64,000 nucleotides of DNA from an uncultured bacterium. GTDB lineage: Bacteria; Patescibacteriota; Doudnabacteria; UBA920. The stretch spans positions 43,913 to 107,912 of the forward strand of contig CAVVMJ010000010.1 of NCBI GenBank assembly GCA_963749445.1, given 5' to 3'. The stretch's first letter is position 1. The number at the start of each line of letters is the position of its first letter. This document shows, in pieces, positions 6,981 to 63,906 of this stretch. Below the pieces are notes generated by a model that was given only the letters and a program-made list of their open reading frames with translations, did not search any database and had not been told where the DNA came from. Position numbers and translations under genes: made by a program.

Positions 6981-8489
6981 TTATTTGCAGGCGCCCGGCG
7001 TTCCCGGGGCCAAAATGGGATTACAGGTTGTGACCGGTGCCCCCGGCGGCTTGGCTGGCTCCGTTTGCGTCGTTGTTGTTGTACCGCCGCCGTGATGCGT
7101 GGCAGCGATAATCGCGCCGGCCGCGGCAATCGCGACTACAATCGCAATCCACCACTTGCTACCAGCCGCCTTGAGCAGACCCTCACAGTGGATAACGCAC
7201 CCATCGTCGGTTGTTACATCAAGGGCAAACTGAACTTCCTTCTTCTTGTTCAGCTCGGCTGTTGTAACGAGCAGCGAGTTATCGCTGCCTGTGACGTTAC
7301 CGTTTACTCCCCACCTAATGGACTTTATCTGCCGACCCTTGAGTTGGGCCGGGGAAATGAAATCAGAGATGTTGAGCCGAATGCCGTCCTTCCCAACCCT
7401 AAAAGTCTGGTTGGGCTTGGAACAAGTCGGGCAAACCGGTTTCGAAGGTAGTGGAGGTGGTGAAGCTTCAACCCTCTTGACCACTACCGCAAACGGGCAG
7501 CTCGATCGCCGACCGAACTGGTCGGTAAGATCAAACGAGCCGGGATAAGTCCCGGGAGCGAAGTTGGTGATCTTAGGGCCGAAGGCGAATACATCTTCGC
7601 GCCCGTCGAGATCAGGGTTAGTGGACTGCACCTCCCCTTTCACCAGCCATTCAGCCTTCAGCCTGAGGTTTTCCGCCGCCCCAATAGCCCTCCCCCTAAA
7701 CTCAAGCACCTGTTCAGGAGTCAAGGAAAAAGGCGGCGTGTCAGTGGTAATGAGGTCGCCGTTCTGCCAAAGTCCGCAGGTTGCGAACCCGGGCCGTGTA
7801 ACTGGCGGCGTCCCTGGTTCGCTTGGCGTGGTCTCAAACCACACTTCCACGAACACATATCCGAAGTTGCCACAAATGAACACCAGATTGATAACGACAG
7901 CTTCGGATTCGATGAAGAATTCACAAGACTGCGTTCTGGCGGCCAGCTCCGGCGGAACCTCCAACTTCTCGTTCACCCCTGTACCATTCGCCATGATCAC
8001 GAACCTGCTCGGTTCGAGTAGCTTACTTGGCTTGCATGCTCCGGCTTCGATCTTTTTCTTGAACTCTTCCTTAGCCTCTGCCGACAAATTCAAACGTTTA
8101 TCTATGGCTTCAAAGAGCTCATCTTGCTGGTTCACGGTCGGCGGCATATTGACGATCGGGGTGGACGTAATGGGATCCCGGCGCCATTCGTGCTGCATGA
8201 CTGTCCAGTCCATGTCTGCGAGCCGCTTCATTTCGGGATCAACGTTCCCCTGCCTTTGCAGGTACGCGTCGATCTCCTCACGGGTACGCAGAACATGGAA
8301 GTAAGTTACCTTGCCATCCTCCACCTTCTTGTAGTCATAGCGCCGGCCGGAGGCTGTCACGCCACCGCCGTTCTGGAGCGTCGTAGGCAGTTGGGTTTGC
8401 GGTTGCTGGGCGAGCACGGACTGAGGTCCGGTCACCATCAACAACGCCAAAATCAAGGCCAGTATCTGGCCCACGTTCATACGATTCAT
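6981..8489 (-). CDS. secreted/membrane-anchored protein of unknown function
   Basis: Likely start MNRMNVGQILALILALLMVTGPQSVLA (signal peptide) with a GGAGG ribosome-binding site upstream. C-terminal TM segment WWIAIVVAIAAAGAIIAA followed by a Gly/Thr/Pro-rich tail. GC content is higher than in neighbouring genes. Confidence 0.45.
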   Translation of the reverse strand: MNRMNVGQILALILALLMVTGPQSVLAQQPQTQLPTTLQNGGGVTASGRRYDYKKVEDGKVTYFHVLRTREEIDAYLQRQGNVDPEMKRLADMDWTVMQHEWRRDPITSTPIVNMPPTVNQQDELFEAIDKRLNLSAEAKEEFKKKIEAGACKPSKLLEPSRFVIMANGTGVNEKLEVPPELAARTQSCEFFIESEAVVINLVFICGNFGYVFVEVWFETTPSEPGTPPVTRPGFATCGLWQNGDLITTDTPPFSLTPEQVLEFRGRAIGAAENLRLKAEWLVKGEVQSTNPDLDGREDVFAFGPKITNFAPGTYPGSFDLTDQFGRRSSCPFAVVVKRVEASPPPLPSKPVCPTCSKPNQTFRVGKDGIRLNISDFISPAQLKGRQIKSIRWGVNGNVTGSDNSLLVTTAELNKKKEVQFALDVTTDDGCVIHCEGLLKAAGSKWWIAIVVAIAAAGAIIAATHHGGGTTTTTQTEPAKPPGAPVTTCNPILAPGTPGACK

Positions 8490-10339: not shown

Positions 10340-10368
10340 TTGTCAAGTCCATAGTTTTGATGTAAAAT
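10340..10368 (+). promoter_or_regulatory. sigma70-like promoter for the CAP-domain gene
   Basis: TTGTCA, 17 nt, TAAAAT, with the ATG about 10 nt downstream. Confidence 0.4.
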
Positions 10369-10378
10369 ACCTTTAGGT

Positions 10379-11518
10379 ATGCTATCAAAATCCCCATCTG
10401 AACAAACTTTAACAGCCAGGCGCAAGCCACTGCCGACCCACGGCTTTTTACTGATTTTACTGATAATCTTTGTTGCCTTCAAGCTTGTATTGGCACTGGC
10501 GCTACCGCAAAGCGCGGTTTTTGCCTCTGACCTTACCATAGACAACATCCTTTCGGCTGTAAATAGCCAACGGAGCCAGCGCAACCTTGTTACGCTCAAC
10601 ACGGACAGCCGCTTAAGCAGCGCCGCGCAAAGCAAAGCCGACGATATGCAGGCGCGACACTATTTCGCGCACGTTGATCCGGACGGCAATTATATTTGGC
10701 CAAAAATCGTGGCCGCCGGTTACACGCCTTATTTGGAACTCGGGGAAAACTTGGCCATTGAATTTTACGATACAGATAGTTTGATATCCGCCTGGATGAA
10801 CAGCCCAACGCACCGCGCCAACATTTTAAACGACGGTTTCCAGGACCAGGGCATGGGTCTGGACTTTGGCGACGCTAATAGCGGCCAATACCATTCGGTG
10901 GTGGCCAATACCTTTGGAACGCTGCTGTTGGCAAAAAAAGTAGAGGCCGCACCTCAGACGACCAAGTTTACCCCGACTACAGCGTCGGGGCCGGCCGTGT
11001 CCGGCGCCAGCGAAAAAACCCCGACGCAAACGGCTCCAAAAAATACTGCCCAACCCAAACCCAAGGCCCCGCCTACCGCCCCGCCCGCTGCCGCCCAACC
11101 GGAGCCAGAGGCAACTTCGGCTCCAGCCACAACCACGGCACAAAATAATCCCGCCCCTGCTCCGGAACCTGTTGCTAATCCGGTTAATCCCCGCGGCGAT
11201 TATGCCATGGGCCTGAGCCCAAGCCAACCCGAAGCCAGTACGGCCCAAGCGCAAACTTCCCAACCGGTTTCGTCATCTTCACCCCCCGCCCTGACCACGG
11301 CGCCGGCCATAGTGAACACCGAATCCCAAAACCCGCTGGCAAACTTCCAAACCAACCGCTATTTTACGTTGGCCTTTGGCATCGTCTTATTTTTATTTTT
11401 ACTCACCGACCTGCGCGGCATAATGAAACAAAAATCCGAACTCGTCGGCAAAAAAATCAACAACCTGACGCTCCTGTTTTTGGCTTTGGTCGTGATTGCG
11501 ATGATGTACTGGCTGTAA
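10379..11518 (+). CDS. CAP/SCP/PR1-like domain protein (YkwD-like) with Pro/Ala/Thr-rich linker and C-terminal membrane anchor
   Basis: HYFAHVDPDG ... WMNSPTHRANIL motifs typical of the CAP superfamily. N-terminal TM/signal segment and C-terminal TM. Confidence 0.7.
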   Translation: MLSKSPSEQTLTARRKPLPTHGFLLILLIIFVAFKLVLALALPQSAVFASDLTIDNILSAVNSQRSQRNLVTLNTDSRLSSAAQSKADDMQARHYFAHVDPDGNYIWPKIVAAGYTPYLELGENLAIEFYDTDSLISAWMNSPTHRANILNDGFQDQGMGLDFGDANSGQYHSVVANTFGTLLLAKKVEAAPQTTKFTPTTASGPAVSGASEKTPTQTAPKNTAQPKPKAPPTAPPAAAQPEPEATSAPATTTAQNNPAPAPEPVANPVNPRGDYAMGLSPSQPEASTAQAQTSQPVSSSSPPALTTAPAIVNTESQNPLANFQTNRYFTLAFGIVLFLFLLTDLRGIMKQKSELVGKKINNLTLLFLALVVIAMMYWL

Positions 11519-14605: not shown

Positions 14606-14648
14606 AAAAGCCTGTCTAATATCAATTCTGGCCAGAATTGATATTAGA

Positions 14649-15182
14649 CTAGATAAAATTAAACTTTTTCCTTAAATCTTTATCACTGTCCATTTCTTCA
14701 ACTTTCAAAATTCGGATAAAAAGCAGCAGGCCTGTTTCTCTCAAATACATAATCGCCTCTCGGTTTAAAGGATACGGGCTGACATAAACGCTGTGCTGCA
14801 ATTTCTTAAAACCGTTTTTCTTGAGAAGGCTTCGAAAAAAATTGCGTTTATCTTCACTTTCTTCGGGAATATCAAACATTATTATTCGCCATTTGCCATC
14901 CCATTTTTTTGGCCGTTCCGGTAATCGAGCTTTTGACAACAATGCTTCAAGCTCGCCTTTTGCTGTCAGTCTTATAAAACGTTCATTATCTTTATTTACA
15001 TATTTAATCCAGCCTTTCGCCGCCAAATAACTGACAATTTTATAAAAATTTTTGTTGTCACCCAGCGGCTGCCCCTTATATAACCGCTTGCGCATTTCGT
15101 GGGGAGTAACCAAAAATGTATCCCCCGCAACCAGCAGGGACATCAATATTTTGCTAGTTAAAGTAAAATCTTTTTTTGCCAT
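14649..15182 (-). CDS. PaaX-like transcriptional regulator (winged HTH plus Cas2-like domain)
   Basis: N-terminal winged-HTH (FIRLTAKGELEAL). C-terminal WRIIMFDIPE...LQHSVYVS matches the Cas2/PaaX-middle-domain fold signature. Confidence 0.5.
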   Translation of the reverse strand: MAKKDFTLTSKILMSLLVAGDTFLVTPHEMRKRLYKGQPLGDNKNFYKIVSYLAAKGWIKYVNKDNERFIRLTAKGELEALLSKARLPERPKKWDGKWRIIMFDIPEESEDKRNFFRSLLKKNGFKKLQHSVYVSPYPLNREAIMYLRETGLLLFIRILKVEEMDSDKDLRKKFNFI

Positions 15183-15213
15183 TGTCTAATATAGTTTCCG
15201 GCCATAAATGATG

Positions 15214-16227
15214 TTAGATAAGATTTTTGCCGTATTGCTGCTTGTAATATTTCTGGTAATCCCCGCTCTTTACTCTTTTCCACCAACCCCGGTTGCTCTG
15301 ATACCAGTCCAAAGTTTTTTGCAAAGATTCGTCCAATCCGTATTTAGGCTGCCAGCCGAGCTCGCGGGTAATTTTGGAATGATCCAACGCGTACTTTTGA
15401 TCATGGCCCGGACGGTCGGCAACGAATTCTATCATTCCATCACTCTGCTTCATCATGACCAATAATTTCCTGATGATTTCCAAATTGCTGAATTCCGGAT
15501 TGTTAGGCCCGATAAAATAAGTCTCTCCCGCTTTGCCTTTTTCTAATATTGTTTCTATGCCGCTGCAGTGGTCTTCCACATAAAGCCATTCACGGATTTG
15601 GTTGCCGGGTTTATAAACCGGAACTTTTTTGCCTTCCAATAAATTGGTAATGGCCAGCGGGATTAGCTTTTCCGGAAACATATACGGGCCGATGTTATTG
15701 GCGCAATTGGAGATGGTTATAGGCAAACCATAGGTGTAATAATAAGCGCGGACAAGATGATCACTGGCCGCTTTGCTTGCCGAATACGGGCTGCGCGGAT
15801 TGTACGGACTCTCCTCTGTCCACTTTGTTTTGGAATCAAGGGGCAGCGATCCAAATACTTCATCAGTAGATACATGATGGAAGCGCTTTACCTGATATTT
15901 GCGGGCGGCTTTAAGCAACTCATGCGTACCAATAACATTTGTCCGGATAAAATCATCAGGGCCGGATATTGAACGGTCAACGTGCGTTTCGGCTGCAAAA
16001 TGGACAACAACCTCAACGCCCTGCATCGCCTTATTGACAGCCGCGGGGTCGCAAATGTCGCCTTTGATAAAAGTTATCTTATCCTTAACCGCAGCCAAAT
16101 TTTCCAAATTGCCGGCATAGGTTAATTTATCCAGCACGACAATTTTGTCGTCCGGATGATTCTTGACCCAATAATGGACAAAGTTGGAGCCAATAAACCC
16201 CGCCCCGCCGGTAATAAGAATCTTCAT
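15214..16227 (-). CDS. rfbB: dTDP-glucose 4,6-dehydratase
   Basis: MKILITGGAGFIGSNF...; YxxxK in YSASKAASD; 337 aa. Confidence 0.9.
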   Translation of the reverse strand: MKILITGGAGFIGSNFVHYWVKNHPDDKIVVLDKLTYAGNLENLAAVKDKITFIKGDICDPAAVNKAMQGVEVVVHFAAETHVDRSISGPDDFIRTNVIGTHELLKAARKYQVKRFHHVSTDEVFGSLPLDSKTKWTEESPYNPRSPYSASKAASDHLVRAYYYTYGLPITISNCANNIGPYMFPEKLIPLAITNLLEGKKVPVYKPGNQIREWLYVEDHCSGIETILEKGKAGETYFIGPNNPEFSNLEIIRKLLVMMKQSDGMIEFVADRPGHDQKYALDHSKITRELGWQPKYGLDESLQKTLDWYQSNRGWWKRVKSGDYQKYYKQQYGKNLI

Positions 16228-17828: not shown

Positions 17829-18629
17829 CTAGGTTAAAATCTTCCACGGGGTGGCTAAAGCAACAATAGTAATCGCCAACGCGACCAAAACTAAGTGAAA
17901 TTGGATTTTTTTGACGGTTAAAGTCTGGAACAAATGGTAGTAGTTTAAAATCAGGCAAAAATAAAACAGGCAAAGCAGTATCAGTCCCTGGGCCGAATAA
18001 TGAAGCGGCAAAAAACTTTCCGCCCAAAACAGCTCGGCGGAAAACAGGCTCAATGCCAGGGCCGCCACCCACTTGGTCTTATCCGGCTGGGGGACAAATT
18101 CGTAAAACGCGCGGCTAAGAAGCAAGGTCACAAAAAATACGCCGAGCAAATAGAGCGGCTGCAGGGAAAACTGCCAGTTGAGCAAATGCCAGCGGCCCAG
18201 ATGCACGGCAATTTGGTGAAAATCCGGAAAAAATTGTCCGGCGGCCGAAAGGCCCAGCAGCAAACCGAAAGCAATCAGCAGCGTTTCATTAATCACCATA
18301 TTTTCCGTGAAATTGCCCAAATTGACTTCCGCCAAAAAAATCACCACAGCCGCGCTGGCCAAAAACCAACCGCGGAACACGGGCGTGGGCAGCATAAAAA
18401 AAATCGCGAAGCCGCTGAAAAACTGCAGCACTGACCGCGTTAAAATCCAGGGGTTGTATTTTTGGACGGACAATAAATATTTTTTGTTATAGTAAGCCAC
18501 CGCGCCGCAAAACAACAAAAAAACCGGCAGCATGATGCGGAACACAGGCTGCGGATTTGACAAGCGCCAAAGGACTGCGGCATACAGCACCCCAATGACG
18601 GCGGAAATTATTTTATGTTTTTGGAACAT
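17829..18629 (-). CDS. polytopic membrane protein (hypothetical)
   Basis: 266-aa ORF with 7-8 predicted TM segments. Confidence 0.4.
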   Translation of the reverse strand: MFQKHKIISAVIGVLYAAVLWRLSNPQPVFRIMLPVFLLFCGAVAYYNKKYLLSVQKYNPWILTRSVLQFFSGFAIFFMLPTPVFRGWFLASAAVVIFLAEVNLGNFTENMVINETLLIAFGLLLGLSAAGQFFPDFHQIAVHLGRWHLLNWQFSLQPLYLLGVFFVTLLLSRAFYEFVPQPDKTKWVAALALSLFSAELFWAESFLPLHYSAQGLILLCLFYFCLILNYYHLFQTLTVKKIQFHLVLVALAITIVALATPWKILT

Positions 18630-20110: not shown

Positions 20111-20951
20111 TTTGGTTTTATTGATCAGTTATATATAAGCAATGTAGCGTGCCGATTCATCGGCGTCCGAAAACCGCCCATAAATGGGCACGCTACACTT
20201 ATTCATTATATAAAACATTTGTCAAAAAGACAAAAAAAGCTCTCTGCCAGATCAGAGAGCAACGGTACCCGGAAGCCCGCGTGCGGCCCCGGGATTTTTC
20301 TACGATACGCAACCGTTCAAAAACAAACGGCTGGTTCCCGCGGCAGATGCTGGCAACCGCGAAAAATTCATAATTGCGGCCCGGAGCTTTCGCCCCGGAC
20401 TGTGCCCCATGTGGGGCTCCTTCTCCTTGGTATTGTATACCCGCTTGCCAGTTCAGGCGGGGTGATGCAAAAGGGCAGAAGCCCCAACTACGCCCAAAAT
20501 ATCACCGATATTACTGGTTGGGCCTGCCTGATCAAACGCTCCCGGAGCTAAATGGAGTTAAAAAATATCAGGGCAGAAGCGCCTGCAGTCCTCGGCCGTC
20601 AACCGAGTCCTTTGGCGATTTTTTGCCCCTATTTCGTCCAAACCATCAGGGGCCAATGGATTGCACGTTGGGCTATCGGCTCAGCAGGTTGACGGACATC
20701 GTCGCACTCATAGACGAAACTCCCTTCTTCATGTGTTCCAATTGTTTTTCCGCAGGCCTTTTTCCTGCGGCGATTGGTTTAACCAGATATTACTCTCTCT
20801 CTCTGTTTTTGTCAACATTTTTGCCATTTTTACAATTTTGTTGTAAAATACTTTTATCATTGATTTTTAACAGCCCTACCGACTGTTTATCGGACGAGGG
20901 CTATCCTCAGAGGCCGATAAATCGGCAAACTACACTGGGGTGAAAGCAAAT

Positions 20952-22815: not shown

Positions 22816-22875
22816 CAGTCCATCCCGGAATTTTTTGCGCTGATGGCTATCACAGGCCGCAAAAAATATCCGGGA
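22816..22875 (+). repeat. hairpin repeat family F2, copy 1
   Basis: CATCCCGGAATTTTTTGCG - 20-nt loop - CGCAAAAAATATCCGGGATCC. Near-identical copies at 43998-44057 and, inverted, at 55140-55213. Confidence 0.8.
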
Positions 22876-22971
22876 TCCAGAATCGAGCAAAAATCTGGAT
22901 TCCCGCTTCCGTGGGAATGGCAAAGAGTAATTCACCGATTTATCGGTCATAAAAAATTAAATGCAAAAAAA

Positions 22972-23871: not shown

Positions 23872-24000
23872 TTACGGCCTTCTCCCCTTTTGAGGGGAGA
23901 TGTCGCGAATGCAGCTGAGCGACAGAGAGGTTGCAATCGCACAAGGATACAACCTCTCCCCTGCCCCTCTCCTCAAAAGGAGAGGGGGCTCCGCGAAATC
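23872..24000. repeat. variant copy of palindromic repeat family F1 in the ybaK-scpA intergenic region
   Basis: CTCCCCTTTTGAGGGGAG hairpin plus ACAACCTCTCCCCTGCCCCTCTCCTCAAAAGGAGAGGGGGCTCCGCG. Shares modules with the copy at 62129-62175. Confidence 0.7.
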
Positions 24001-25815: not shown

Positions 25816-26012
25816 ACGGCCGGAAACGCTTATCTAGGCAACTGGTTATAAGAAGCCTGCGGACTGGACGGCACTTCCTGTTTGAGCTGAACTTTTTGGC
25901 AAGCGGCCGCCAAAAGCGACAGTAAAACCAAAACCAAAATCAATTTCCTTTTACCCATATTATAAATCCCTTGTCTAACATCATTTCCGGCCGGAAATGA
26001 TGTTAGAGTAAA

Positions 26013-26774
26013 TTAAATCAATAGCGCCGCGCCCAAAGCTCCAGCGTTCTTTAATTGCGAAACCAAAATTTCAGTCTCGGCATTTTTGTCGAAAAGATAC
26101 TGACGCATCTCTAACTTCGCCGCGGGCAAATACTTTTTGCTTTGGTCGCTGCCGAATCCGCCCCCGATAATGACGGCATCGGCCGCGAAAATATTTATAA
26201 AAGACGCCAGTGCTTTGCCGACCACTCTGCCTACCTGCTTATAATCTTTCTTGTCCCGAAACCGCTTGAAAGCCGCTTCAAAAAACTCCTCGCCCAAAAC
26301 TATGTGCCCAAGCTCGGCGCCAAAATTGTTTTCGCCCCGATACAGCCGCCTGTTAATCACAATCCCGCCGCCGATGCCGGTACCCAAAGTCAAAGCCAAA
26401 AAATTTTTGAATTTTCTCCCCTGCCCCAACATCAGTTCCGCCCGGGCAAAACAGTTGGCGTCATTGTCAACCCTGACCCTTTTTATGCCGTTTAATTTAA
26501 GCAGCTTGGCTAAATTTAAATCACGGATAAATTTTATATTCGGGGAATGCCTGACCATGCCATTTTTCTGATCTACCAATCCGGCCATGCCCGCGCCGAG
26601 GCCGGAAATTTTTCGCTTTGCTGACAAAAAATCCGCGAGCTTGATGATGTTCCGCTCAAACTCAAATAAATTTTTCGGGGTCACAACTGTCAGCTCGTCA
26701 ATGATTTTTTTACCGTCATAAACAATGCCGGTGATTTTAGTGCCGCCGATGTCAATTCCTATAATATTTTTCAT
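26013..26774 (-). CDS. ROK/BadF-type sugar kinase (ASKHA ATPase)
   Basis: MKNIIGIDIGGTKITGIV phosphate-1 motif; DNDANC and GTGIGGGIV motifs; no ROK zinc motif. Confidence 0.6.
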   Translation of the reverse strand: MKNIIGIDIGGTKITGIVYDGKKIIDELTVVTPKNLFEFERNIIKLADFLSAKRKISGLGAGMAGLVDQKNGMVRHSPNIKFIRDLNLAKLLKLNGIKRVRVDNDANCFARAELMLGQGRKFKNFLALTLGTGIGGGIVINRRLYRGENNFGAELGHIVLGEEFFEAAFKRFRDKKDYKQVGRVVGKALASFINIFAADAVIIGGGFGSDQSKKYLPAAKLEMRQYLFDKNAETEILVSQLKNAGALGAALLI

Positions 26775-37056: not shown

Positions 37057-38421
37057 TCAGAATGACGCCCTTGATAAATAATCTCCGATAATTTGCCTGG
37101 TTTCGTCCAGGTTTTTTGTTTGCATTAGCTTGGCGCGTAGCTCGTGCGCGCCGGCAAAACCGGAACAATAAGCTTTAAAATGCTTGCGCATAATCGCGAA
37201 TGATTTATTTTTGCCAAGTTCCCGGTCAAACAGTTCCGCGTGTTCCAGCATGACGCGGAGGCGTTCTTTTATGTCCGTCTGGTAATTATCATCGCGAAAT
37301 ACCCAAGGGTGCCCAAACGCTCCCCTGCCGATCATTACGCCGTCGCAACCCGTCTCCGCGACGCGCGCCAGCCCTTCCTCGCGCGACTTAATGTCGCCAT
37401 TCCCGATAATCAAAGTCTTAGCCCTTAGCCCTAAAACCTTAGCCCTGATATTCACCGCCTCGGCAATCTTGTCCCAATGCGCCGGAACTTTGGACATTTC
37501 CTGTTTGGTACGGCCGTGCAAAATCAGCGCCGCGATGTCCATCGCGAGCAAATTTTCCACCCATTTTTCCATCTCCGATGTTTTGCTGTAGCCGATGCGG
37601 GTTTTGACTGATATCGGCACCAAAACCACCTCCCCCCTCGGCTTCGCTCGGGGTACTCCTCCTTGAAAAGGAGGAGAGCTCCGCACTTTATCCGATAACG
37701 GGGACAATTGCGGAGCCTCCCCTCCTGTTAAGGAGGGGTGTCCCGCGGAGCGGGACGGGGTGGTTGGAGATTGCACGGATTGTCCCGACAGCCACCCTTC
37801 TTTTGTCGCGCTGATGATTTCCCAGGCGAGTTTCGGTTCGCGGATAAGCGCCGCGCAAGTCCCGCCCGCAATTTCTTTTTGCTGCGGACAGCCCATATTA
37901 ATGTCAATGCCGTCAAATTTTAAATCGCGGATGATTCGCGCGGCCTCTTTAAATTTTTCCGGGTCGCGCCCCCACAACTGCGCCACAATCGGTCTCTGCG
38001 CTTCGCTGTATTTTAAATCGATGGATAAATTTTTCCTGCCTTCCGGATGCGTCAACCCGTCCACGTTTATAAATTCCGTGAACGTAACAAAATTATTACC
38101 ACCTCCCCCGCCTTCGGCGGGTACTCCTCCTATGAGAGGAGGAGAGCTCCGCAAAATATTCGAGGATAACCGCGGAGCGCTCCCCTCCTTTTTTGAGGCC
38201 TTGATGAAGGCAAAGGAGGGGTGGCTCGCGCAGCGAGACGGGGTGGTACTTCCACTTTTAACTTTTAATTTTCCACTTTTAACTTGCCCGCCATAGCGGG
38301 CCACCATCTCCCGAAACGCAAAGTCAGTGACTTGCTCCATCGGAGCCAAGCAAAATATCGGTTTCTTTAAATTATTCCAAAAATTATTCATTGCGCAAGC
38401 AAACGACCTCTCTGTCGCCAA
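37057..38421 (-). CDS. tRNA-dihydrouridine synthase (Dus family; specific paralog not determined) carrying three in-frame repeat-element insertions
   Basis: CLAPMEQVTDFAFREMV, DINMGCPQQKEIAGGTCAAL and IGNGDI motifs. At 454 aa versus about 330 expected. Inserts correspond to family F1 copies at 38098-38240 and 37625-37766 and a short TTAGCCCT repeat at 37416-37451. Confidence 0.8.
   Translation of the reverse strand: MATERSFACAMNNFWNNLKKPIFCLAPMEQVTDFAFREMVARYGGQVKSGKLKVKSGSTTPSRCASHPSFAFIKASKKEGSAPRLSSNILRSSPPLIGGVPAEGGGGGNNFVTFTEFINVDGLTHPEGRKNLSIDLKYSEAQRPIVAQLWGRDPEKFKEAARIIRDLKFDGIDINMGCPQQKEIAGGTCAALIREPKLAWEIISATKEGWLSGQSVQSPTTPSRSAGHPSLTGGEAPQLSPLSDKVRSSPPFQGGVPRAKPRGEVVLVPISVKTRIGYSKTSEMEKWVENLLAMDIAALILHGRTKQEMSKVPAHWDKIAEAVNIRAKVLGLRAKTLIIGNGDIKSREEGLARVAETGCDGVMIGRGAFGHPWVFRDDNYQTDIKERLRVMLEHAELFDRELGKNKSFAIMRKHFKAYCSGFAGAHELRAKLMQTKNLDETRQIIGDYLSRASF
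37625..37766. repeat. palindromic repeat family F1, copy A (module order 1 then 2), inside dus
   Basis: CCACCTCCCCCC..GGGGTACTCCTCCttgaaaaGGAGGAGAGCTCCGC ... GCGGAGCCTCCCCTCCtgttaaGGAGGGGTG..GGGACGGGGTGG. Confidence 0.85.
38098..38285. repeat. palindromic repeat family F1, copy B, plus adjacent tandem TTCCACTTTTAACTT x2, inside dus
   Basis: Same module structure. Module 2 is nearly identical to the copies at 62499 and 63405. Confidence 0.85.
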
Positions 38422-38768
38422 AAACGATATTATTCTAAAAATTTTGGCGACATCTCCCCTCGCCAGGGGAGAATAATAATGAAGAATCTATCGCGAAATC
38501 CGTCACCTCTTCCATCGGCGCGAGGCAAAATATCGGTTTTTTTAGTTGTTGCCAAAAGTTGACAAACATATATTTATAACATAGCTGCCATCCCGAGGAG
38601 TGCAGCCGACGAGGGATCTTTCACATAGTTTAAATCAAAAACCGCGCTGATGCAATCGGTGCGGTTTTTGAACGTTTGATGATAATCGATGATTATTTAG
38701 GGGATCCTTCGGCCGCCTGTATAATTCTGATGACGGCCTCGGGATGAATTTGAAATAACAATGCTGTG

Positions 38769-39757: not shown

Positions 39758-39900
39758 AATTTATTAGTAGTTAGCAGATAGTATTTAGCAGTTAGGGCTA
39801 GATCGACCTCGTAGCCGATAAATATCCTTTTAATAAAAAGACTCGGGCTTACCCGAGTGAATAAGTGTAGTGTGCACATTTATGGGCAACTAATGATGGC
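39758..39900 (-). promoter_or_regulatory. rplJ 5' leader (candidate L10-leader autoregulatory structure)
   Basis: A 140-nt untranslated region with hairpin potential (GGGCTTACCCGAG..) upstream of rplJ. Call is by position only. Confidence 0.3.
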
Positions 39901-40253: not shown

Positions 40254-40892
40254 CTAATGCCCCAGTGCAAACTTGGGCAAATAATCAATCAATGCCGCGG
40301 CTTCGCGCAGGTAATGGAAAACCAAATCAGCCGACGAATACCCGCCGGACGTCTCCGGCGCTTTCCAATAAACCGGGCTAAACCCGGCCAGTTTGGCGGT
40401 AATCACGCCGCGCGCCAAATGGTAGGTATCGCTGACAATAATAACGCTTTTGGCCGACGGAATTAATTTTTTGGAATCGGCGATGTTTTCAAAAGTTGAT
40501 TGGGAATTTTGTTCCAAAATCATCACCGGCGCTTTATTCTCCCTCCCCTTTTGAGGGGAGGGATTAAGGGAGAGGTTGCTGTCTGATTCTTTCGCCACCT
40601 CATCCAGCACCGCGTTCTCCATATACTGCGCTTCGGAAATAGATTTAGGATAATCCTCCCCGCCGGACAAAACCAGTACGGGCGCCTTGCCTTCATCGTA
40701 CAGTTTTAACCCCTCAAGCGCGCGGTTATAAGCCGCTGGCGTCTTAATGGCCGCGCCAAGCACTATAATAGCGTCCGCCTGCCCCACCGGCCGCTGCCAG
40801 TGCCCCACGCCAATCACAACGCCAAGCGATATAACAAACACCGCGCACGTGGCGTAAATTAAATATCTGATGGTTTTCCAAAGTTTCCTCAT
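40254..40892 (-). CDS. DUF218 (YdcF/ElyC/SanA-like) membrane-anchored protein with an in-frame mini-repeat insertion
   Basis: N-terminal TM; LVLSGGEDYPKSISEA and TFENIADSK motifs. Insert at 40548-40585 encodes NPSPQKGREN. Confidence 0.55.
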   Translation of the reverse strand: MRKLWKTIRYLIYATCAVFVISLGVVIGVGHWQRPVGQADAIIVLGAAIKTPAAYNRALEGLKLYDEGKAPVLVLSGGEDYPKSISEAQYMENAVLDEVAKESDSNLSLNPSPQKGRENKAPVMILEQNSQSTFENIADSKKLIPSAKSVIIVSDTYHLARGVITAKLAGFSPVYWKAPETSGGYSSADLVFHYLREAAALIDYLPKFALGH

Positions 40893-48171: not shown

Positions 48172-48732
48172 TCAAAGCCCATTTTTTGCTTCTAAAACGT
48201 TTAACTGTAATGATTTTTTTATCTCTTCCAGCGCTATTTGTTTGTTTTCTAAACTTTTAACCTCTGTCACTTTGTTTTTCTGTCGGCCCACTTCGCGGTA
48301 AAAGGCCGTGCATTTTTCCAAAAAGCCCGGCGGCAAATTATCAGCGTCAAGATATTTACCGGCAAGTTCGTCGTCCAGAGGCACAACAATAATTTTATCA
48401 TCCACTTCGCCGCGGTCAATGGTTTTTAACATACCGACCGCTTTGCACTTCACGAACTCGCCCATCTTAATCGGCGCGGATGACAAAACTATGGCGTCCA
48501 AAGGGTCACCGTCGCCGCCCAAAGTGTGCGGAATGAATCCGTAATTAAAAGGAAAAACCAAATCCTTAAATACAAAATCCAATTTTAAACTGTCTGAGGC
48601 TTCGTCGTACTCGTACTTTAAATTACTCCCTTGCGGAATTTCCACAATGACGTTAAAAGCCTCCAAACTGCCAAAAGGAATTTGTTCCAGATTAATTTTG
48701 TCATTTTTATTATTTTTACTCATTTTTGTCAT
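48172..48732 (-). CDS. ppa: soluble inorganic pyrophosphatase (family I)
   Basis: Core region FNVIVEIPQGSNLKYEYD...LDFVFKDLVFPFNYGFIPHTLGGDGDPLDAIVL. Confidence 0.85.
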   Translation of the reverse strand: MTKMSKNNKNDKINLEQIPFGSLEAFNVIVEIPQGSNLKYEYDEASDSLKLDFVFKDLVFPFNYGFIPHTLGGDGDPLDAIVLSSAPIKMGEFVKCKAVGMLKTIDRGEVDDKIIVVPLDDELAGKYLDADNLPPGFLEKCTAFYREVGRQKNKVTEVKSLENKQIALEEIKKSLQLNVLEAKNGL

Positions 48733-50138
48733 TACCCAATTATTCCGCCGCCAACGCACACTTTACCCTTATATAATACCAAACTCTGCCCCGAAGCGAC
48801 AGCTTTTTGGGGATCTTTAAAGGTTACGCGATAAAGGCCATTTTTAATTTTGTCGATAGTTAGCGGCACCAGTTGGCCCTGGTGGCGGTAGCGGCCAACT
48901 AGGGCTAAGGGTCTAGGGCTAAGAGCTAAGTCGCTTTTGCTTAGCCCTATAACCTTAGCGCTTAGCCCTGTTTGCCCAATCCAGTTCACGCTATAAATTT
49001 GTACTTCTTTCGTCATCAGATTTTCGTCATCCGGATTATTTGTAACGTACAACGCATTGCTCTTTAAATCTTTTCTTACCACATAATACGGCCCGCCGGC
49101 GCCAACATGAATTCCCTGCCGCTGGCCGATGGTATAGTTAAATAATCCCTGATGTTGGCCGATTATGTTTCCTGAAATTGCAAGTGCAGCCGACTTGTCC
49201 GCCGAAGCTTCAGCGAAGGTGGAAGCAATCCCGTCTTTTATGGGATTGCCACGTCGCCCCTCCGGTGCAGTCGGGGCTCCTCGCAATTTCAAATCAGAAG
49301 AAACAAGAACAATCGGACCCGGTTTTGGCTTTAACCTCTGTTCCAAAAAATCTTTTAATCTTATCTTGCCGACAAAGCACAGTCCCATACTCTCTTTTTT
49401 CTCGGCGTTGGGCAGATCGATTTTCCGCGCCAGCGCGCGCACCGCCGATTTTTTCATCCCGCCGATGGGAAACAACAAATGCGGCAGCTGGTGGGTTTTG
49501 ATGTTATAGATAAAGTAGGTCTGGTCTTTAAATTCGTCGATACTGCGCATAAGACCATACCTAACTCCAACCTCCTCCCCCGCCTGACGGCGGGTACTCC
49601 TCCTTAAAAAGGAGGAGAGCTCCGCGGAGCCGCCAAGAACATCTGCAGAGCCTCCCCTCCTGCCAAGGAGGGGCGTCTGCGAAGCAGACGGGGTGGTATG
49701 AATCTGCGCGTAATGGCCGGTGGCCAAATAATCAAATCCGTTTTGCATTGCCCAGTTATACAAAAGTTTGAACTTGATTTCCTTATTGCACATCACGTCC
49801 GGGTTGGGGGTGAGGCCTTTTTTGTATTGGTCAAAAAAATAACGCATCACGTTTTTTTGGTACTGTTTTTCAAAATCCAAAGTATGCAGCGGAATTCGCA
49901 AAAACGCGGCCACGCGCAGCGCGTCCTGGCGATCTATTAGCCACGGACATTCGTTTTTTAAAAGCCCGGCCGTGGAAGACCAATTCTTCATAAACGCGGC
50001 CTCAACTTCGTAGCCCTGCTTAATCAGCAAATACGCCGAAACCGCGGAATCAATCCCGCCTGACAGGGCGATTAAAACTTTTCGTTTCTTAACTCCCCCT
50101 CTTTTGAAAAGAGAGGGCTGGGGGAAGTTCTTTTTCAT
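48732..50138 (-). CDS. mnmA: tRNA-specific 2-thiouridylase MnmA carrying in-frame repeat-element insertions
   Basis: PP-loop LIALSGGIDSAV; KDQTYF; C-terminal domains. The F1 copy at 49566-49700 encodes a 46-aa insert. A TTAGCCCT repeat at 48901-48972 encodes ALSPRPLAL. A mini-hairpin sits at 50091-50130 near the N-terminus. Confidence 0.85.
   Translation of the reverse strand: MKKNFPQPSLFKRGGVKKRKVLIALSGGIDSAVSAYLLIKQGYEVEAAFMKNWSSTAGLLKNECPWLIDRQDALRVAAFLRIPLHTLDFEKQYQKNVMRYFFDQYKKGLTPNPDVMCNKEIKFKLLYNWAMQNGFDYLATGHYAQIHTTPSASQTPLLGRRGGSADVLGGSAELSSFLRRSTRRQAGEEVGVRYGLMRSIDEFKDQTYFIYNIKTHQLPHLLFPIGGMKKSAVRALARKIDLPNAEKKESMGLCFVGKIRLKDFLEQRLKPKPGPIVLVSSDLKLRGAPTAPEGRRGNPIKDGIASTFAEASADKSAALAISGNIIGQHQGLFNYTIGQRQGIHVGAGGPYYVVRKDLKSNALYVTNNPDDENLMTKEVQIYSVNWIGQTGLSAKVIGLSKSDLALSPRPLALVGRYRHQGQLVPLTIDKIKNGLYRVTFKDPQKAVASGQSLVLYKGKVCVGGGIIG
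49566..49700. repeat. palindromic repeat family F1, copy C, inside mnmA
   Basis: CCTCCTCCCCCGCC..GGGTACTCCTCCttaaaaaGGAGGAGAGCTCCGCGGAGC ... CTCCCCTCCtgccaaGGAGGGG..GACGGGGTGG. Confidence 0.85.
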
Positions 50139-53223: not shown

Positions 53224-54093
53224 TCAGGACGCGCAGGCGTTAAAAGCCTGCACCCCAGCGTTATACTGTCCGGTGTCCTGCTTTAGCAAATCAACCTTAT
53301 TATTATAAATGTTCACCAAGTCGTTATATTGCGCGACGAGCTGGTTATACTGGTTGGCCTGCTGCTGGTTTTGCGGCTCAGGCGAACTGTCAATCTGGCT
53401 TTTGAGCGCCTGGAGCTGGGGCAAAATTGAGTCCACGTCGGACTTTAAACTGTCAATCTGGCTTTTGAGAACCGCGTCAACTTGCGGACAGCTTGACAAA
53501 GGTTTGCCGAATTCCTGCACCGCCAGCCACGTCTGCTTGCCTTCAAACTGCCCCTGGCCCACGGCCGCGCCGATTTCCTGGTACTTAATATTTAAAATAT
53601 TGGCGCGATGGCCCGGGCTGTTCATCCAGGCGTCCACTAAAGCGGCGTCGTCTTTAAAGTTGCCTAAAGCCAGATTTTCGCCGATGATGACATATTGGTA
53701 GCCCGCGGCCTTGGCCTGGTCCGCCGGCCCTTTGCCGTCCGGCGAAACGTGCTCAAAATACTGCCGCGCGAACATGTCAGCCAGTTTATTTTGCGCGTCT
53801 TGATCCAATTTTTGATTTTCTATTAATGGCGGTAAATTGCCGTTTTGCTGCCGCGCCTGGTTGGTAAAATTAATCACGCCGGCACGGGTTAAAAAAGCGT
53901 CGGGACTGTCCTGGGTGCCGCGCAAAGCGCCGCCGTTTAAGACCTGTTGCTTTAAATCCTGCACGGCCTGGTTATTTTGGATAATCTGCACCAGTTGTGG
54001 GCTTTTTTTGACCAACGATTCCAGCTGCGGCCAAAACAGCGCCGCCGCGGCGCCTAAAACTGCCAAGCCGATAATAAAAAAAACTTTTTTCAT
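53224..54093 (-). CDS. second CAP/SCP/PR1-like domain protein (YkwD-like), secreted, with C-terminal coiled-coil/Gln-rich region
   Basis: FEHVSPDGKG...WMNSPGHRANIL motifs; signal peptide. Confidence 0.7.
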   Translation of the reverse strand: MKKVFFIIGLAVLGAAAALFWPQLESLVKKSPQLVQIIQNNQAVQDLKQQVLNGGALRGTQDSPDAFLTRAGVINFTNQARQQNGNLPPLIENQKLDQDAQNKLADMFARQYFEHVSPDGKGPADQAKAAGYQYVIIGENLALGNFKDDAALVDAWMNSPGHRANILNIKYQEIGAAVGQGQFEGKQTWLAVQEFGKPLSSCPQVDAVLKSQIDSLKSDVDSILPQLQALKSQIDSSPEPQNQQQANQYNQLVAQYNDLVNIYNNKVDLLKQDTGQYNAGVQAFNACAS

Positions 54094-55139: not shown

Positions 55140-55213
55140 AGGTAAAAGCCTATATCTGGATCCCGGATATTTTTTGCGGCTTATAATAATCGTCAACGCA
55201 AAAAATTCCGGGA
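55140..55213 (-). repeat. hairpin repeat family F2, copy 3 (inverted orientation)
   Basis: Reverse complement reads CCATCCCGGAATTTTTTGCG ttgacgattattataagc CGCAAAAAATATCCGGGATCC. Confidence 0.8.
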
Positions 55214-55221
55214 TGGAACCT

Positions 55222-57691: not shown

Positions 57692-57772
57692 AATGAAAAA
57701 TCCTTACTTAAAATATAGCAAAGATAAGGATTTTTTACAATGATTGATGTCACGACGTTGTTGCTTAGGAAA

Positions 57773-57930
57773 ACTGCGGAGCATTCCCCTCCTATTCCCA
57801 GAATATCATCAGAATATAGGAGGGGTGTCGCCCGCAGGGTGACAGGGTGGTAAATACAGGTTGCCGATGTCTACCACCTCCCCCTGCTAGTGCAGGGTAC
57901 TCCTCCTGTTCCAGGAGGAGAGGCTCCGCA
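57773..57930. repeat. palindromic repeat family F1, copy D (module order 2 then 1), intergenic
   Basis: GCGGAGCATTCCCCTCC..GGAGGGGTG..GGGTGGTA - spacer - TACCACCTCCCCC..GGGTACTCCTCCtgttccaGGAGGAGAGGCTCCGC. Confidence 0.85.
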
Positions 57931-61543: not shown

Positions 61544-62491
61544 ATGAGCTTATTAATCGTCGGTAGCGTGGCGTTTGACAGCATTGAGACGCCGTTTGGG
61601 AAAATTAAAAAAGCTTTGGGCGGCAGCGCCAGCTATTTTTCTTTGGCTGCTTCGTTTTTTGCGCGGCCGAGCGTAGTCGGCGTGGTCGGAAAGGATTTTG
61701 CCGATATTTATCGGCAACCGCTAAAAAAGAAAAACATTGACCTCTCGGGCCTGGAGCAAACAGCGGGAAAGACTTTTGCCTGGGGCGGCAAGTACAGTTT
61801 TGATTTGAACAACCGCGAAACCCTGTTTACCCATTTAAACGTTTTTGAAAATTTCAAGCCAAAACTTTCGGCCGGCCACAAAAACGCATCTTATATTTTT
61901 TTGGGCAACATCCACCCGGCGCTGCAGCTTGAAGTTTTATCGCAAATAAAAAAACCAAAACTCGTAGGGCTGGACACGATGAATTTATGGATAGAAAAAA
62001 CGCCCAAGGAACTGGCTAAAATTTTAAAACTGGTTGATGTTTTTGTGATTAACGATTCCGAGGCGCGGGAACTGTCGGGGGAACATAATTTGGTGAAAGC
62101 CGCAAAGAAAATCATCGCGATGATGGACACAACCTCTCCCCAGCCCTCCCCTCAAAAGGGGAGGGAGACTGCAACGCTGATTATCAAGCGCGGGGAATAT
62201 GGGCTGCTGCTGTTTAAAGGCCGCGATGTGTTCCATCTGCCGGGATATCCCTTAGAAGACGTGATTGACCCCACCGGCGCGGGCGACAGCTTTGCCGGAG
62301 GGCTGATGGGCTTTTTAGCCAAAACTGAAGACCTAAGTTGGGGCAATTTAAAACGAGCCTGCGTGGCAGGCTCGGTCATGGCCAGTTTTTGCTGCGAGCG
62401 GCTGGGTACCCAAAGGTTGCAGGAAATATCGCCGGGTGATATAAAACGGCGGTTCAAAGAATTTAAACGGTTGACGCACTTTGATAACTAG
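61544..62491 (+). CDS. PfkB-family carbohydrate kinase with in-frame mini-repeat insertion
   Basis: DPTGAGDSFAGGLMGFL ATP-binding motif; N-terminal GG sugar-binding region. Insert 62129-62175 encodes TTSPQPSPQKGRETA. Confidence 0.75.
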   Translation: MSLLIVGSVAFDSIETPFGKIKKALGGSASYFSLAASFFARPSVVGVVGKDFADIYRQPLKKKNIDLSGLEQTAGKTFAWGGKYSFDLNNRETLFTHLNVFENFKPKLSAGHKNASYIFLGNIHPALQLEVLSQIKKPKLVGLDTMNLWIEKTPKELAKILKLVDVFVINDSEARELSGEHNLVKAAKKIIAMMDTTSPQPSPQKGRETATLIIKRGEYGLLLFKGRDVFHLPGYPLEDVIDPTGAGDSFAGGLMGFLAKTEDLSWGNLKRACVAGSVMASFCCERLGTQRLQEISPGDIKRRFKEFKRLTHFDN

Positions 62492-62498
62492 CAAACCC

Positions 62499-62647
62499 GC
62501 GGAGCACTCCCCTCCTTTTTTGAGGTCTTGATGAGCACAAAGGAGGGGTGGCTCGCGCAGCGAGACGGGGTGGTATTTATCGTTGATTCTACCACCTCCC
62601 CCCGCTTCGCGGGGTACTCCTCCTTTTCAGGAGGAGAGGCTCCGCAA
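62499..62647. repeat. palindromic repeat family F1, copy E (module order 2 then 1)
   Basis: Module 2 is identical over about 78 nt to copy F (63405-63480). Confidence 0.85.
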
Positions 62648-62993
62648 TTATTCTATGACAAAGGGCGGCCAATGGCCGCCCTATACGTCACCGGCTATTA
62701 GTTTCTCCGTTCAGCCAGCTATCCATCGTGGTGGGGTTAAAATTATAGGTTCGGCCGCCAAGGTGGCCGGACACGGGTACGCGGAACAGCCAGAGTACAA
62801 AGGCGGCTAAAATCAGCAGCATCAAAATTACGCTGATAATGGGGACTGGTGCATATATCTGTTGGTGGATAAATCAAAATCGCCTGTAGCTACAGGCGAT
62901 TTTGTGTATTTTTTCGTTACTAATTTCGTTTATGAAATCAGTTTTGCTTTTATGCTAATCAGTTAATCATCAAGCGCCGGTAAACATTAACGT

Positions 62994-63362
62994 TTATCGA
63001 TAATTTTGCCGTTTATCGATTAACTTTACCAACAGGTTAGTGCAGCAGTCCCTGATAATGCGGGCAAAAATTCCGGCGCGCGACAGAATGGACAGGCCCA
63101 AAAAAATTATCAGCACCGGCCAAACGTGGGAGAAAAACTGTCCCCACTCAAAACCGGTCACGTAGCCCAATGAGCGGGCCAAAAATGCCAGGCCGATCAT
63201 AATAATTATCATTCCCCAAAACAAGTGCCCGAACCAATGACCGTGGTAATGATCGTGGCGATGGTAATGCAAATCTTTAAATTTATCCCTTTGCTGCTGC
63301 TCGGGCGTGGGTTGGGTCGGCGTGGGCTGATGAATATTTGGATTCGTTTGATTGTTTTCCAT
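62994..63362 (-). CDS. small membrane protein with His-rich N-terminus (paralog of 63562..63906)
   Basis: HYHRHDHYHGHW His cluster; TM segments; shared WPVLIIFLGLSILSR motif. Confidence 0.4.
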   Translation of the reverse strand: MENNQTNPNIHQPTPTQPTPEQQQRDKFKDLHYHRHDHYHGHWFGHLFWGMIIIMIGLAFLARSLGYVTGFEWGQFFSHVWPVLIIFLGLSILSRAGIFARIIRDCCTNLLVKLIDKRQNYR

Positions 63363-63404
63363 AAGATTATAAATAGTTTTTATACTACGGTTTTAAGGAA
63401 TATC

Positions 63405-63558
63405 GCGGAGCACTCCCCTCCTTTTTTGAGGTCTTGATGAGCACAAAGGAGGGGTGGCTCGCGCAGCGAGACGGGGTGGTATTATCATAGCGAGTATTTA
63501 TACCACCTCCCCCCGACAAGTCGGGGTACTCCTCCTATGATAGGAGGAGAGGCTCCGC
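63405..63558. repeat. palindromic repeat family F1, copy F (module order 2 then 1)
   Basis: CGCGGAGCACTCCCCTCCttttttgagg..GGAGGGGTGGCTCGCGCAGCGAGACGGGGTGGTA - spacer - TACCACCTCCCCCCGAC..GGGGTACTCCTCCtatgataGGAGGAGAGGCTCCGCGG. Confidence 0.85.
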
Positions 63559-63561
63559 GGA

Positions 63562-63906
63562 CTACCTATGGCTCCCGCCGCGCGACAAAATCGCGATTCC
63601 CAAAACGATTATCAGCACCGGCCAGAGCACGTTCCAGCCAATCCAGGGCTGCGGGAACAACTGGTTCATTAAAGCCACGGCGCCGACAATTACAACAATC
63701 AACCCAAACCACAAACGGCGGTTTTGGCGCCTTTTTTCCCAATCGATATTTTTAACTTCACCCCTCACTTCGCCGGCCCAGTGTTGGGCGCTGGCTCTTA
63801 CGTCGGCCACGAAATCGTGAAATTGCTCGCCGTGGTTAACGACTCCGGCGCCTGGCCTGCCAAAGGCTCTTTGGGAATAATGATCGCCAAAATAATATAC
63901 AGCCAC
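63562..63906 (-). CDS. small membrane protein (paralog of 62994..63362)
   Basis: Shared WPVLIIVLGIAILSR motif and two TM segments. Confidence 0.4.
   Translation of the reverse strand: MAVYYFGDHYSQRAFGRPGAGVVNHGEQFHDFVADVRASAQHWAGEVRGEVKNIDWEKRRQNRRLWFGLIVVIVGAVALMNQLFPQPWIGWNVLWPVLIIVLGIAILSRGGSHR

Follow-up and report, generated by a model that had tools for sequence, protein, structure and literature searches.

Why do two unrelated proteins of an uncultured member of the Doudnabacteria carry almost the same short peptide, and what kind of DNA element encodes it? The question was addressed in contig CAVVMJ010000010.1 (positions 43,913 to 107,912 of the forward strand; this whole stretch of 64,000 nucleotides is called the window), whose proteins have their best named homologs in Candidatus Doudnabacteria. 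The peptide lies in the products of a DUF218/YdcF family gene and a PfkB-family sugar kinase gene, and the original prediction, made from the sequence, ascribed it to one minimal hairpin module inserted in frame. The insertion is confirmed here, and the element is larger than proposed: it is probably one copy of a dispersed DNA repeat family with a class II intrastrand-triplex design, the architecture of the BoxC/PIT/TMECO repeats. Its intragenic copies are in frame and stop-free. The peptide is the plain translation of the unit, in which the pyrimidine (Y) arm gives Pro/Ser, the loop Gln-Lys and the purine (R) arm Gly-Arg-Glu. The two genes are as follows.

40254..40892, minus strand, DUF218/YdcF family gene, 212 aa (Pfam DUF218, E 4.6e-20)
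61544..62491, plus strand, PfkB-family sugar kinase gene, 315 aa (Pfam PfkB, E 1.6e-27)

One hairpin inserted into two unrelated genes

Searching the window located the 21-nt sequence CCTCCCCTCAAAAGGGGAGGG exactly at 40541-40561 on the minus strand and at 62145-62165 on the plus strand, and it did not occur in 100 dinucleotide-preserving shuffles of the window. Diverged relatives with 2-3 mismatches lie at 23880-23900 and 23966-23986. The 11-mer CAACCTCTCCC stands directly 5' of the hairpin at 40568-78 (minus), 62130-40 (plus) and 23950-60 (plus). On the coding strand both genes read CCC TCC CCT CAA AAG GGG AGG GAG, which is translated to P-S-P-Q-K-G-R-E, and the orientation and codon phase of the hairpin are equal in both. 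The DUF218 protein reads ...NLSLNPSPQKGRENK... and the PfkB protein reads ...TTSPQPSPQKGRETA...; an example of a peptide spanning the junction of an insert is MMDTTSPQPSPQK. One short module is therefore present in both genes, and the near-identity of the peptides comes from shared DNA, the exact 21-mer and the adjoining CAACCTCTCCC tract, as had been proposed. Convergent low-complexity Pro/Ser composition as the source of the peptide is ruled out by the exact DNA identity. An assembly artefact is also ruled out, since related inserts occupy these positions in independent assemblies.

Orthologs of 64-77% identity have empty PfkB and DUF218 sites, which bears out the proposal that the module was inserted in frame. 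The PfkB site is empty in the orthologs of loci L042 and L044 (75-77% identity), and the extra segment is 36 nucleotides long in the window and 33 in L043, where the loop is CGCC instead of CAAA. The DUF218 site is empty in L047 (64% identity) and in most orthologs (191-193 aa); L046 and L048 have other variants at that position, one of them with an added hairpin linker. The Dus gene of the window carries two longer in-frame inserts, one of 52 codons (38094-38251) and one of about 55 codons (37626-37764), with ends ACCACCCC...GGGGGAGGTGGT, and Dus of the syntenic relative L046 is 347 aa long and has neither. MnmA orthologs are 359 to 492 aa long and vary at four or five sites, and the insert at 49564-49700 is common only to the four closest orthologs. 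At the MnmA N-terminus, where a related module had been predicted at 50091-50130, a unit is present in degenerate form with 10/11 stem pairs; ortholog P0212 starts MENSPRPPLWKRGGV, and most orthologs lack the segment.

Wherever the DNA could be aligned, the insert length was a multiple of 3 (36 and 33 nt in PfkB). No target-site duplication was visible against the empty alleles at three sites with diverged flanks (PfkB, DUF218 and Dus). In AlphaFold models, the PfkB insert (about residues 195-210) forms a coil between the helix 183-194 and the strand 211-215 with a pLDDT of 55-68 (model mean 89.8), and the DUF218 insert forms a coil at 109-122 with a pLDDT of 62 (model mean 92.1). In the two proteins modelled, the inserts thus fall in low-confidence surface loops. 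The empty sites in PfkB, DUF218 and Dus orthologs indicate that the DNA unit is a true lineage-specific in-frame insertion.

Repeat units and their mirror tracts

A repeat scan of the window followed by alignment placed 18 half-units in one architecture. In one orientation, the layout is ACCACC(TC)CCC or CAACCTCTCCC, an optional small GC hairpin, a pyrimidine arm, a loop, the complementary purine arm and often GCTCCGC. The pyrimidine arm occurs as CTCCTCCT, CCCCTCCT or CCCTCCCCT, and the optional hairpin varies among copies via compensating changes. Units are either single (35-45 nt, without terminal inverted repeats) or paired in inverted arrangement, A-type with B-type; 7/7 doublets of the window are A plus inverted B. 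Doublets are 137-163 nt long, with the inverted-repeat ends ACCACCYCCCC...GGGGRGGTGGT. A unit's linker measures 2-7 nt or else forms a variable GC hairpin. The loop is 4 nt and the linker 2-3 nt in the mini-module of DUF218 and PfkB, and in A and B units the second loop is a 16-23-nt hairpin and the first loop reaches 20-24 nt. The mini-module is the short-linker, single-unit form of this dispersed repeat family. The description as a minimal hairpin was incomplete: the unit has three parts (Y arm, R arm and mirror tract), and its family extends to the 140-160-nt inverted doublets in Dus and MnmA, which the original prediction did not connect with it. Its extent in DUF218 is 40540-40576 rather than 40548-40585. 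Ten triplex-type loci were found in the 64-kb window (3 singlets and 7 doublets), and 6/10 are in frame within genes (DUF218, PfkB, MnmA twice and Dus twice). They are listed below with a related bare hairpin.

40540..40576, plus strand (G-rich; gene on minus), singlet in DUF218, mirror match 9/10
62132..62165, minus strand (G-rich, triplex-capable; gene on plus), singlet in PfkB, mirror match 8/9
50091..50130, plus strand, degenerate singlet translated at the MnmA N-terminus (MKKNFPQPSLFKRGGV...), stem 10/11, mirror about 7/11 by hand count
23881..23996, unstranded, intergenic inverted pair in the ybaK-scpA spacer, mirror 7/8 and 10/10
38094..38251, unstranded, A+B doublet in frame in the Dus gene (37057-38421, minus strand), mirror 8/8 and 9/10
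37626..37764, unstranded, second A+B doublet in frame in the Dus gene, mirror 9/9 and 8/8
49564..49700, unstranded, A+B doublet in frame in the MnmA gene (48732-50138, minus strand), mirror 9/9 and 8/8
57767..57929, unstranded, intergenic doublet, B then A on the plus strand, upstream of hisS, mirror 7/8 and 8/8
62490..62650, unstranded, intergenic doublet beginning at the PfkB stop codon, mirror 10/10 and 8/8
63396..63558, unstranded, intergenic doublet, mirror 10/10 and 8/8
38453..38472, unstranded, bare related hairpin TCTCCCCT-CGCC-AGGGGAGA upstream of Dus, without mirror tract (best 5-6 of 8)

The DUF218 unit consists of the Y arm TCCCTCCCCT (40540-49), the loop TTTG (40550-53), the R arm AGGGGAGGGA (40554-63), the linker TTA (40564-66) and the mirror (reverse-Hoogsteen) tract AGGGAGAGGT (40567-76). 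On the plus strand, the PfkB unit reads ACCTCTCCC (the complement of the mirror tract), CAG, the Y arm CCCTCCCCT (62144-52), the loop CAAA and the R arm AGGGGAGGG (62157-65). The related module expected in the ybaK-scpA spacer is an inverted pair of units: the first (23881-23931) has a 23-nt hairpin linker and is G-rich on the plus strand, and the second (23950-23987) has a 2-nt linker and is G-rich on the minus strand. The Pfam match of ScpA starts at residue 57 of its long open reading frame (ORF), and its probable start is the ATG near 24005.

The MnmA ORF also contains a palindromic element of a different kind, which is in frame and occurs once in the window (49173-49290, 117 nt; terminal repeats GAAATTGCaAG / CTcGCAATTTC; central hairpin GCAATCCC-9 nt-GGGATTGC). 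MnmA orthologs have related peptides at this site (SLRG..RRGNL..IAS..LAMT), which suggests a second repeat family translated inside genes.

Read along its G-rich strand, a unit runs from the pyrimidine arm through loop, purine arm and linker to the mirror tract. The flanking tract mirrors the purine arm, A being either retained or changed to T, and has no complement nearby. Such a tract was found on exactly one strand, 2-23 nt away and with at most one mismatch, at 16/17 GC-rich Y/R hairpins of the window, the hairpin at 38453-38472 being the sole exception. The scores were 7/8 to 10/10 in the window and 8/8 to 10/10 for most units, and the mirror-tract motif was found 0 times in 30 dinucleotide shuffles. 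The tract covaries with its own stem. The purine arm/mirror pairs of the window include AGGAGGGG/GGGGTGGT, AGGAGGAG/GAGGTGGT, AAGGAGGAG/GAGGAGGTT, AGGAGAGGGG/GGGGAGAGGT and AAAGGAGGGG/GGGGTGGTAT, and examples from other genomes are GGGAGAAGG with GGATGAGGG and GGGGGAGG with GGTGGGGG.

Across phyla, species-representative genomes were queried with the bare 20-nt hairpin, and the flanks were inspected afterwards. The hairpin was present in 41 loci, the genome of the window not being among them, and its hosts included Clostridia, Bacteroidia, Alphaproteobacteria, Chloroflexi, Saccharibacteria, Peribacteria and Doudnabacteria. In 21/42 hairpin occurrences a perfect 8/8 mirror tract lay at most 35 nt from the purine arm (controls 0.95%), and a mirror of at least 7/8 accompanied 35/42 (controls 10.4%). 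The full motif was also found in more than 120 viral-contig loci, where linkers fall into two length classes, 3-7 and 12-27 nt. In these loci a stem of at least 4 bp was present in 113/116 long linkers, compared with 28% when shuffled, and the typical long linker is TG-[stem-loop]-AC, as in the B units of the window. The A-type unit had no matches in viral contigs.

When the DNA strand was folded by Watson-Crick pairing, the hairpin formed with a z of -3 to -4.7 and the mirror tract stayed free; in the DUF218 unit, a 10-bp hairpin (-11.7 kcal/mol, z -3.9) leaves the mirror tract unpaired. The unit is the sequence signature of a putative class II purine-motif intrastrand triple helix, in which G*G-C, A*A-T and T*A-T triads would form and the third strand would run antiparallel to the purine arm.

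Some of these features would also be expected of an ordinary MITE (miniature inverted-repeat transposable element) or a palindrome of the repetitive extragenic palindromic (REP)/REPIN type moved by a transposase, either of the RAYT/IS200-IS605 type or from an insertion sequence with the same ends. The mirror tract would then be part of a terminal inverted repeat, and the triplex potential incidental. The size of the doublets and their inverted-repeat ends agree with this account, the coexistence of singlets and inverted doublets recalls REP and REPIN organisation, and presence or absence varies between close relatives. But the outer tract mirrors the stem of its own half and is not the complement of its partner, so that the outer arms of A and B pair only imperfectly, with mismatches. 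Single units, which lack a partner, follow the mirror rule as well, and so do hairpins across phyla. The three comparable sites show no target-site duplication, and the A-type unit gave no matches in the viral contigs. No transposase was linked to the family here, where no systematic search was made. We consider this explanation possible but doubtful. The idea that the A and B halves join via G-U wobbles into a single long RNA hairpin was dropped, as each outer tract mirrors its own stem.

The intrastrand-triplex design is preferred. Many mirror tracts have T opposite A-T pairs, which speaks for a purine-motif structure of DNA rather than for an RNA structure. While replication, repair or transcription leaves its G-rich strand transiently single-stranded, the unit may fold as hairpin plus triplex. 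Either this structure or a protein recognising it would underlie copying, deletion, replacement and local instability, and the peptide would be a tolerated by-product.

Several points weigh against this reading. The triplex in these sequences is a prediction from sequence, and the two exact mini-copies each have one mismatched triad (8/9 and 9/10). The mirror symmetry could serve another purpose, such as recognition by a protein, and the MITE-like terminal inverted repeats of the doublets could leave room for a conventional transposase. Copies related by descent are not independent, and the covariation rests on about 10 distinct stem/mirror pairs and the cross-phylum test. For this genome, the copies counted are those of the 64-kb window. 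For TMECO itself, in-vivo footprinting detected no stable triplex (PMC4666352).

Reading frames, orientation and turnover

The original prediction also held that the element inserts in a preferred frame and orientation. The claim rested on three copies, and in the three intragenic singlets of the window the C-rich strand is indeed coding, with the same codon phase of the hairpin. Metagenomes were scanned for the module with its mirror tract, which gave at least 120 loci and at least 128 copies; a copy at least 40 codons deep in a stop-free ORF of at least 250 codons was taken as securely intragenic. Among the matches listed, 57/128 copies were intragenic, in 46 host protein clusters. The C-rich strand was coding in 17 of them (frames 0/1/2: 7/4/6) and the G-rich strand in 40 (10/18/12). 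When loci below 50% GC were split by host cluster, about 10 were C-rich and 13 G-rich among the matches listed. Pfam confirmed ten metagenomic host genes in both orientations, namely those for CarB, BipA, a TPR-CHAT protein, M1 aminopeptidase, RecG, a STAND-WD40 protein, Orn/Lys/Arg decarboxylase, ATP synthase gamma, a T9SS-tail protein and PurA. Tabulated by strand and frame, the copies listed occupy both orientations and all six frames, and the idea of a family-wide preference was given up.

Tandem copies of the module were also observed. Locus L085 has four copies at a 39-nt period inside an ORF (10363-10514), which give a repeated EPLPRPLPWEGRG-type peptide, and three copies in L163 (1-152; starts 1, 79 and 118) encode PPSPRRGGAGGEV.

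Only 3 frames are open in the DUF218 copy, which partly dictates the one it is read in. Units have on average more open frames than expected, 4.88 against 4.13 of six, which is a modest enrichment, and the intergenic doublets at 57767 and 63396 have 0/6 frames open. Closed intergenic doublets beside open intragenic copies fit a selection that filters the intragenic copies. Freedom from stop codons through composition was rejected as the whole account of why ORFs tolerate the unit, given the modest effect and the three open frames of the DUF218 copy.

These counts bear on whether the inserted peptide is itself selected, as a shared functional tag or flexible linker (S-P-Q-K-G-R-E) on many proteins. 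Its presence in two unrelated window proteins and the recurrence of TSP[RQ]PSP[QH]KGRE at the PfkB site of several orthologs would suit such a role. However, among the matches listed all six frames of the same DNA are in use, yielding six different peptides, the segments are predicted to be disordered with low pLDDT, close relatives manage without them, and identical units also lie between genes. Selection for the peptide is therefore very improbable.

The same counts bear on RNA structure, that is, on a hairpin in mRNA or between genes that is kept because it pauses ribosomes, blocks RNases or terminates transcription. The hairpins are strong (z -3 to -4.7), several intergenic doublets stand directly after or between genes, and the three intragenic singlets of the window all give the C-rich form in mRNA. 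Against these observations, both orientations are used among the 57 intragenic copies listed, and the host families of low-GC loci divide almost evenly by orientation. T opposite A-T suits the DNA purine motif but does not suit an RNA triplex of the pyrimidine motif formed on the opposite strand. RNA is reported not to form purine-motif triplexes (PMC4666352), and in E. coli PIT elements acted neither as promoters nor as terminators (PMC4666352). The orthologs are patchily occupied. The family matches no described RNA family: Rfam at gathering thresholds returned only three tRNAs for the whole window, and only sub-threshold noise for the region 62100-63600 at E <= 5. A role as RNA structure is accordingly quite improbable.

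Occupancy differs among related genomes. L042, which lacks the PfkB insert, has A+B doublets in its IleRS and ArgRS genes (15338-15470 and 17994-18105), and L044 has no family units in 21 kb. Within the window, the B halves at 62490-62578 and 63396-63484 are identical over about 85 nt, and their A partners differ in the small hairpin and the loop. The identical B halves point to recent copying, and the halves of a doublet seem to evolve, or to be replaced, independently. New copies arose in this lineage. The difference between L042 and L044 together with the identical B halves indicates that the family was active recently and differently in each lineage.

The PfkB loop holds a segment of at least 9 residues in 20/40 orthologs. 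A neighbour-joining tree of the 40 orthologs, analysed by parsimony, requires at least 14 gains or losses, although the tree is short. Neighbours on the tree differ in state (P0002 occupied and P0004 empty; P0005 occupied and P0019 empty), the sequence of the empty state, G-K-N-[PS]-T, is conserved throughout the tree, and the allele TSP[RQ]PSP[QH]KGRE recurs on scattered branches. This pattern could reflect recurrent insertion, loss or allele exchange and is taken as a lead. A much broader proposal is that the units form a cross-phylum class of transposase-less triplex-forming DNA elements, with a short-linker form and a previously unsearched hairpin-linker form, which are still moving and repeatedly enter or leave the same loop codon of orthologous housekeeping genes. 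This would imply site-directed insertion or allele homing and would make the elements a major driver of protein length variation in the candidate phyla radiation (CPR). Taken as a whole, we regard this proposal as unlikely.

Two further insertion hot spots were observed in the PfkB ortholog alignment A1, one with IAASPAKALAPRND-type peptides at columns ~365-405 after ..LLMFxxx and one at columns ~440-455 after ..LAKT. The window protein is empty at both.

Other repeats were noted in the window. A small palindromic family, TTGTCTAACATCATTTCCGGCCGGAAATGATGTTAGA, at 14609-14655, 15179-15225 and 25968-26014 has no relation to the triplex-type units. In ORF 1747-6642 (minus strand, 1631 aa), which is probably a repeat-domain surface protein, a 294-nt repeat stands five times in tandem (72-85% identity, 4491-5977). 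Long-range inverted repeats pair 22819-22881 with 55155-55217 (63 nt, 89%), 10624-10830 with 53591-53797 (42-66 nt, 73-86%), and 20130-20210 with 39858-39887 (30 nt, 93%).

Meaning and comparison with known systems

BoxC/PIT/TMECO repeats have been known for more than 20 years, and to our knowledge neither their function nor their means of spread has been established. If the triplex design is correct, protein-coding genes of Patescibacteria and of other phyla commonly contain an intrastrand-triplex architecture, among them such essential genes as those for aminoacyl-tRNA synthetases, CarB, RecG, BipA, ATP synthase gamma and PurA. The hairpin-linker form is a second form that was invisible to earlier searches. 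The in-frame copies would be natural 'experiments' that reveal where proteins tolerate insertions, and they would explain part of the protein length variation in CPR bacteria, for example in the MnmA orthologs. Occupied and empty orthologous sites would provide a comparative system for the role of non-B DNA in insertion, deletion and recombination. For annotation, Pro/Ser-Gly/Arg/Glu segments common to unrelated proteins can be repeat-derived rather than homologous domains.

Repeats of the BoxC/PIT/TMECO type occur in E. coli and other Proteobacteria (Hoyne et al. 2000 and Hoyne & Maher 2002, via PMC4666352). TMECO is a class II motif with the consensus CCCTCNCCC N3-6 GGGNGAGGG N3 GGGNGAGGG (Holder et al. 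2015, PMC4666352). In E. coli K-12 it has 23 copies, always intergenic; each of its five inverted pairs joins a type A to a type B copy, it is associated with local instability, and its triplex forms in vitro according to circular dichroism (CD) and nuclear magnetic resonance (NMR) evidence (PMC4666352). The units described here have the same class II order of pyrimidine arm, purine arm and mirror tract on one strand, which 16/17 window hairpins follow. They share with BoxC/PIT/TMECO the G/C-rich 8-10-nt stems, often with one mismatched triad, and, in the mini-module, the short first loop; in most window units the stem is 8 nt or longer and no more than one triad is mismatched, as in PIT elements. 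Both are also dispersed in many copies over a genome, form inverted A+B pairs and vary in occupancy between relatives. No associated transposase is reported for TMECO (PMC4666352); none was linked to the present family here, where no systematic search was made.

The differences from TMECO are also clear. Window units do not match the TMECO consensus, having the stems CCCTCCCCT/AGGGGAGGG, CCCCTCCT and CTCCTCCT instead of CCCTCNCCC/GGGNGAGGG. Many of them have a 12-27-nt hairpin in the second loop, beyond the limits of the published searches, which allowed loops of 1-6 nt in ITxF (PMC4666352) and, as cited there, of 0-10 nt in the search of Hoyne et al. An extra GCTCCGC flank and a Patescibacteria host set them further apart, and 6/10 window loci are in frame in genes, in contrast to the exclusively intergenic copies of E. 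coli K-12. The exact TMECO consensus was seen in only one place, in Saccharibacteria, where a 1055-codon ORF of locus L005 contains it at 7111-7143 (CCCTCTCCC TTT GGGAGAGGG N3 GGGTGAGGG) and also holds two mini-module copies.

REP, BIME and REPIN repeats and intragenic MITEs such as ERIC, Coxiella QMITE1 and pneumococcal BOX are likewise short hairpin repeats in the form of singlets and inverted doublets (PMC3116915, PMC5896051, PMC10969869). The two alternating subtypes resemble the Y and Z REPs in BIMEs, and occasional in-frame copies in genes resemble those of intragenic MITEs (same sources), which are known less often for ERIC, BOX and QMITE1 than for Rickettsia (PMC10969869). REPs are extragenic by definition, in contrast to the present family with its intragenic copies; they are tied to RAYT transposases via a conserved 5' tetranucleotide (PMC3116915, PMC5896051, PMC10969869). 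The doublets have the terminal inverted repeats and small size of MITEs, with no target-site duplication visible at the three sites. None of these REP and MITE families is defined by a mirror-repeat third tract. A literature search for such repeats in Patescibacteria found nothing.

A parallel in consequence is provided by the Rickettsia palindromic elements, which lie in frame in unrelated housekeeping genes of a reduced genome (Ogata et al. 2000, via PMC10969869). They are palindromic and about 100-150 nt long, comparable to the doublets, and are translated as an extra peptide compatible with the protein fold; here, too, the extra peptide is absent from orthologs. The present units differ in their far smaller singlets (35-45 nt), their homopurine/homopyrimidine arms with a mirror tract, their occurrence in many phyla rather than one genus and their use of six reading frames family-wide. 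Host phylum and unit design set the two apart, so that the present family would at most work like a Rickettsia palindromic element. It is probably a sequence member of neither group, and it combines the design of PIT/TMECO with the consequence that Rickettsia palindromic elements have for proteins.

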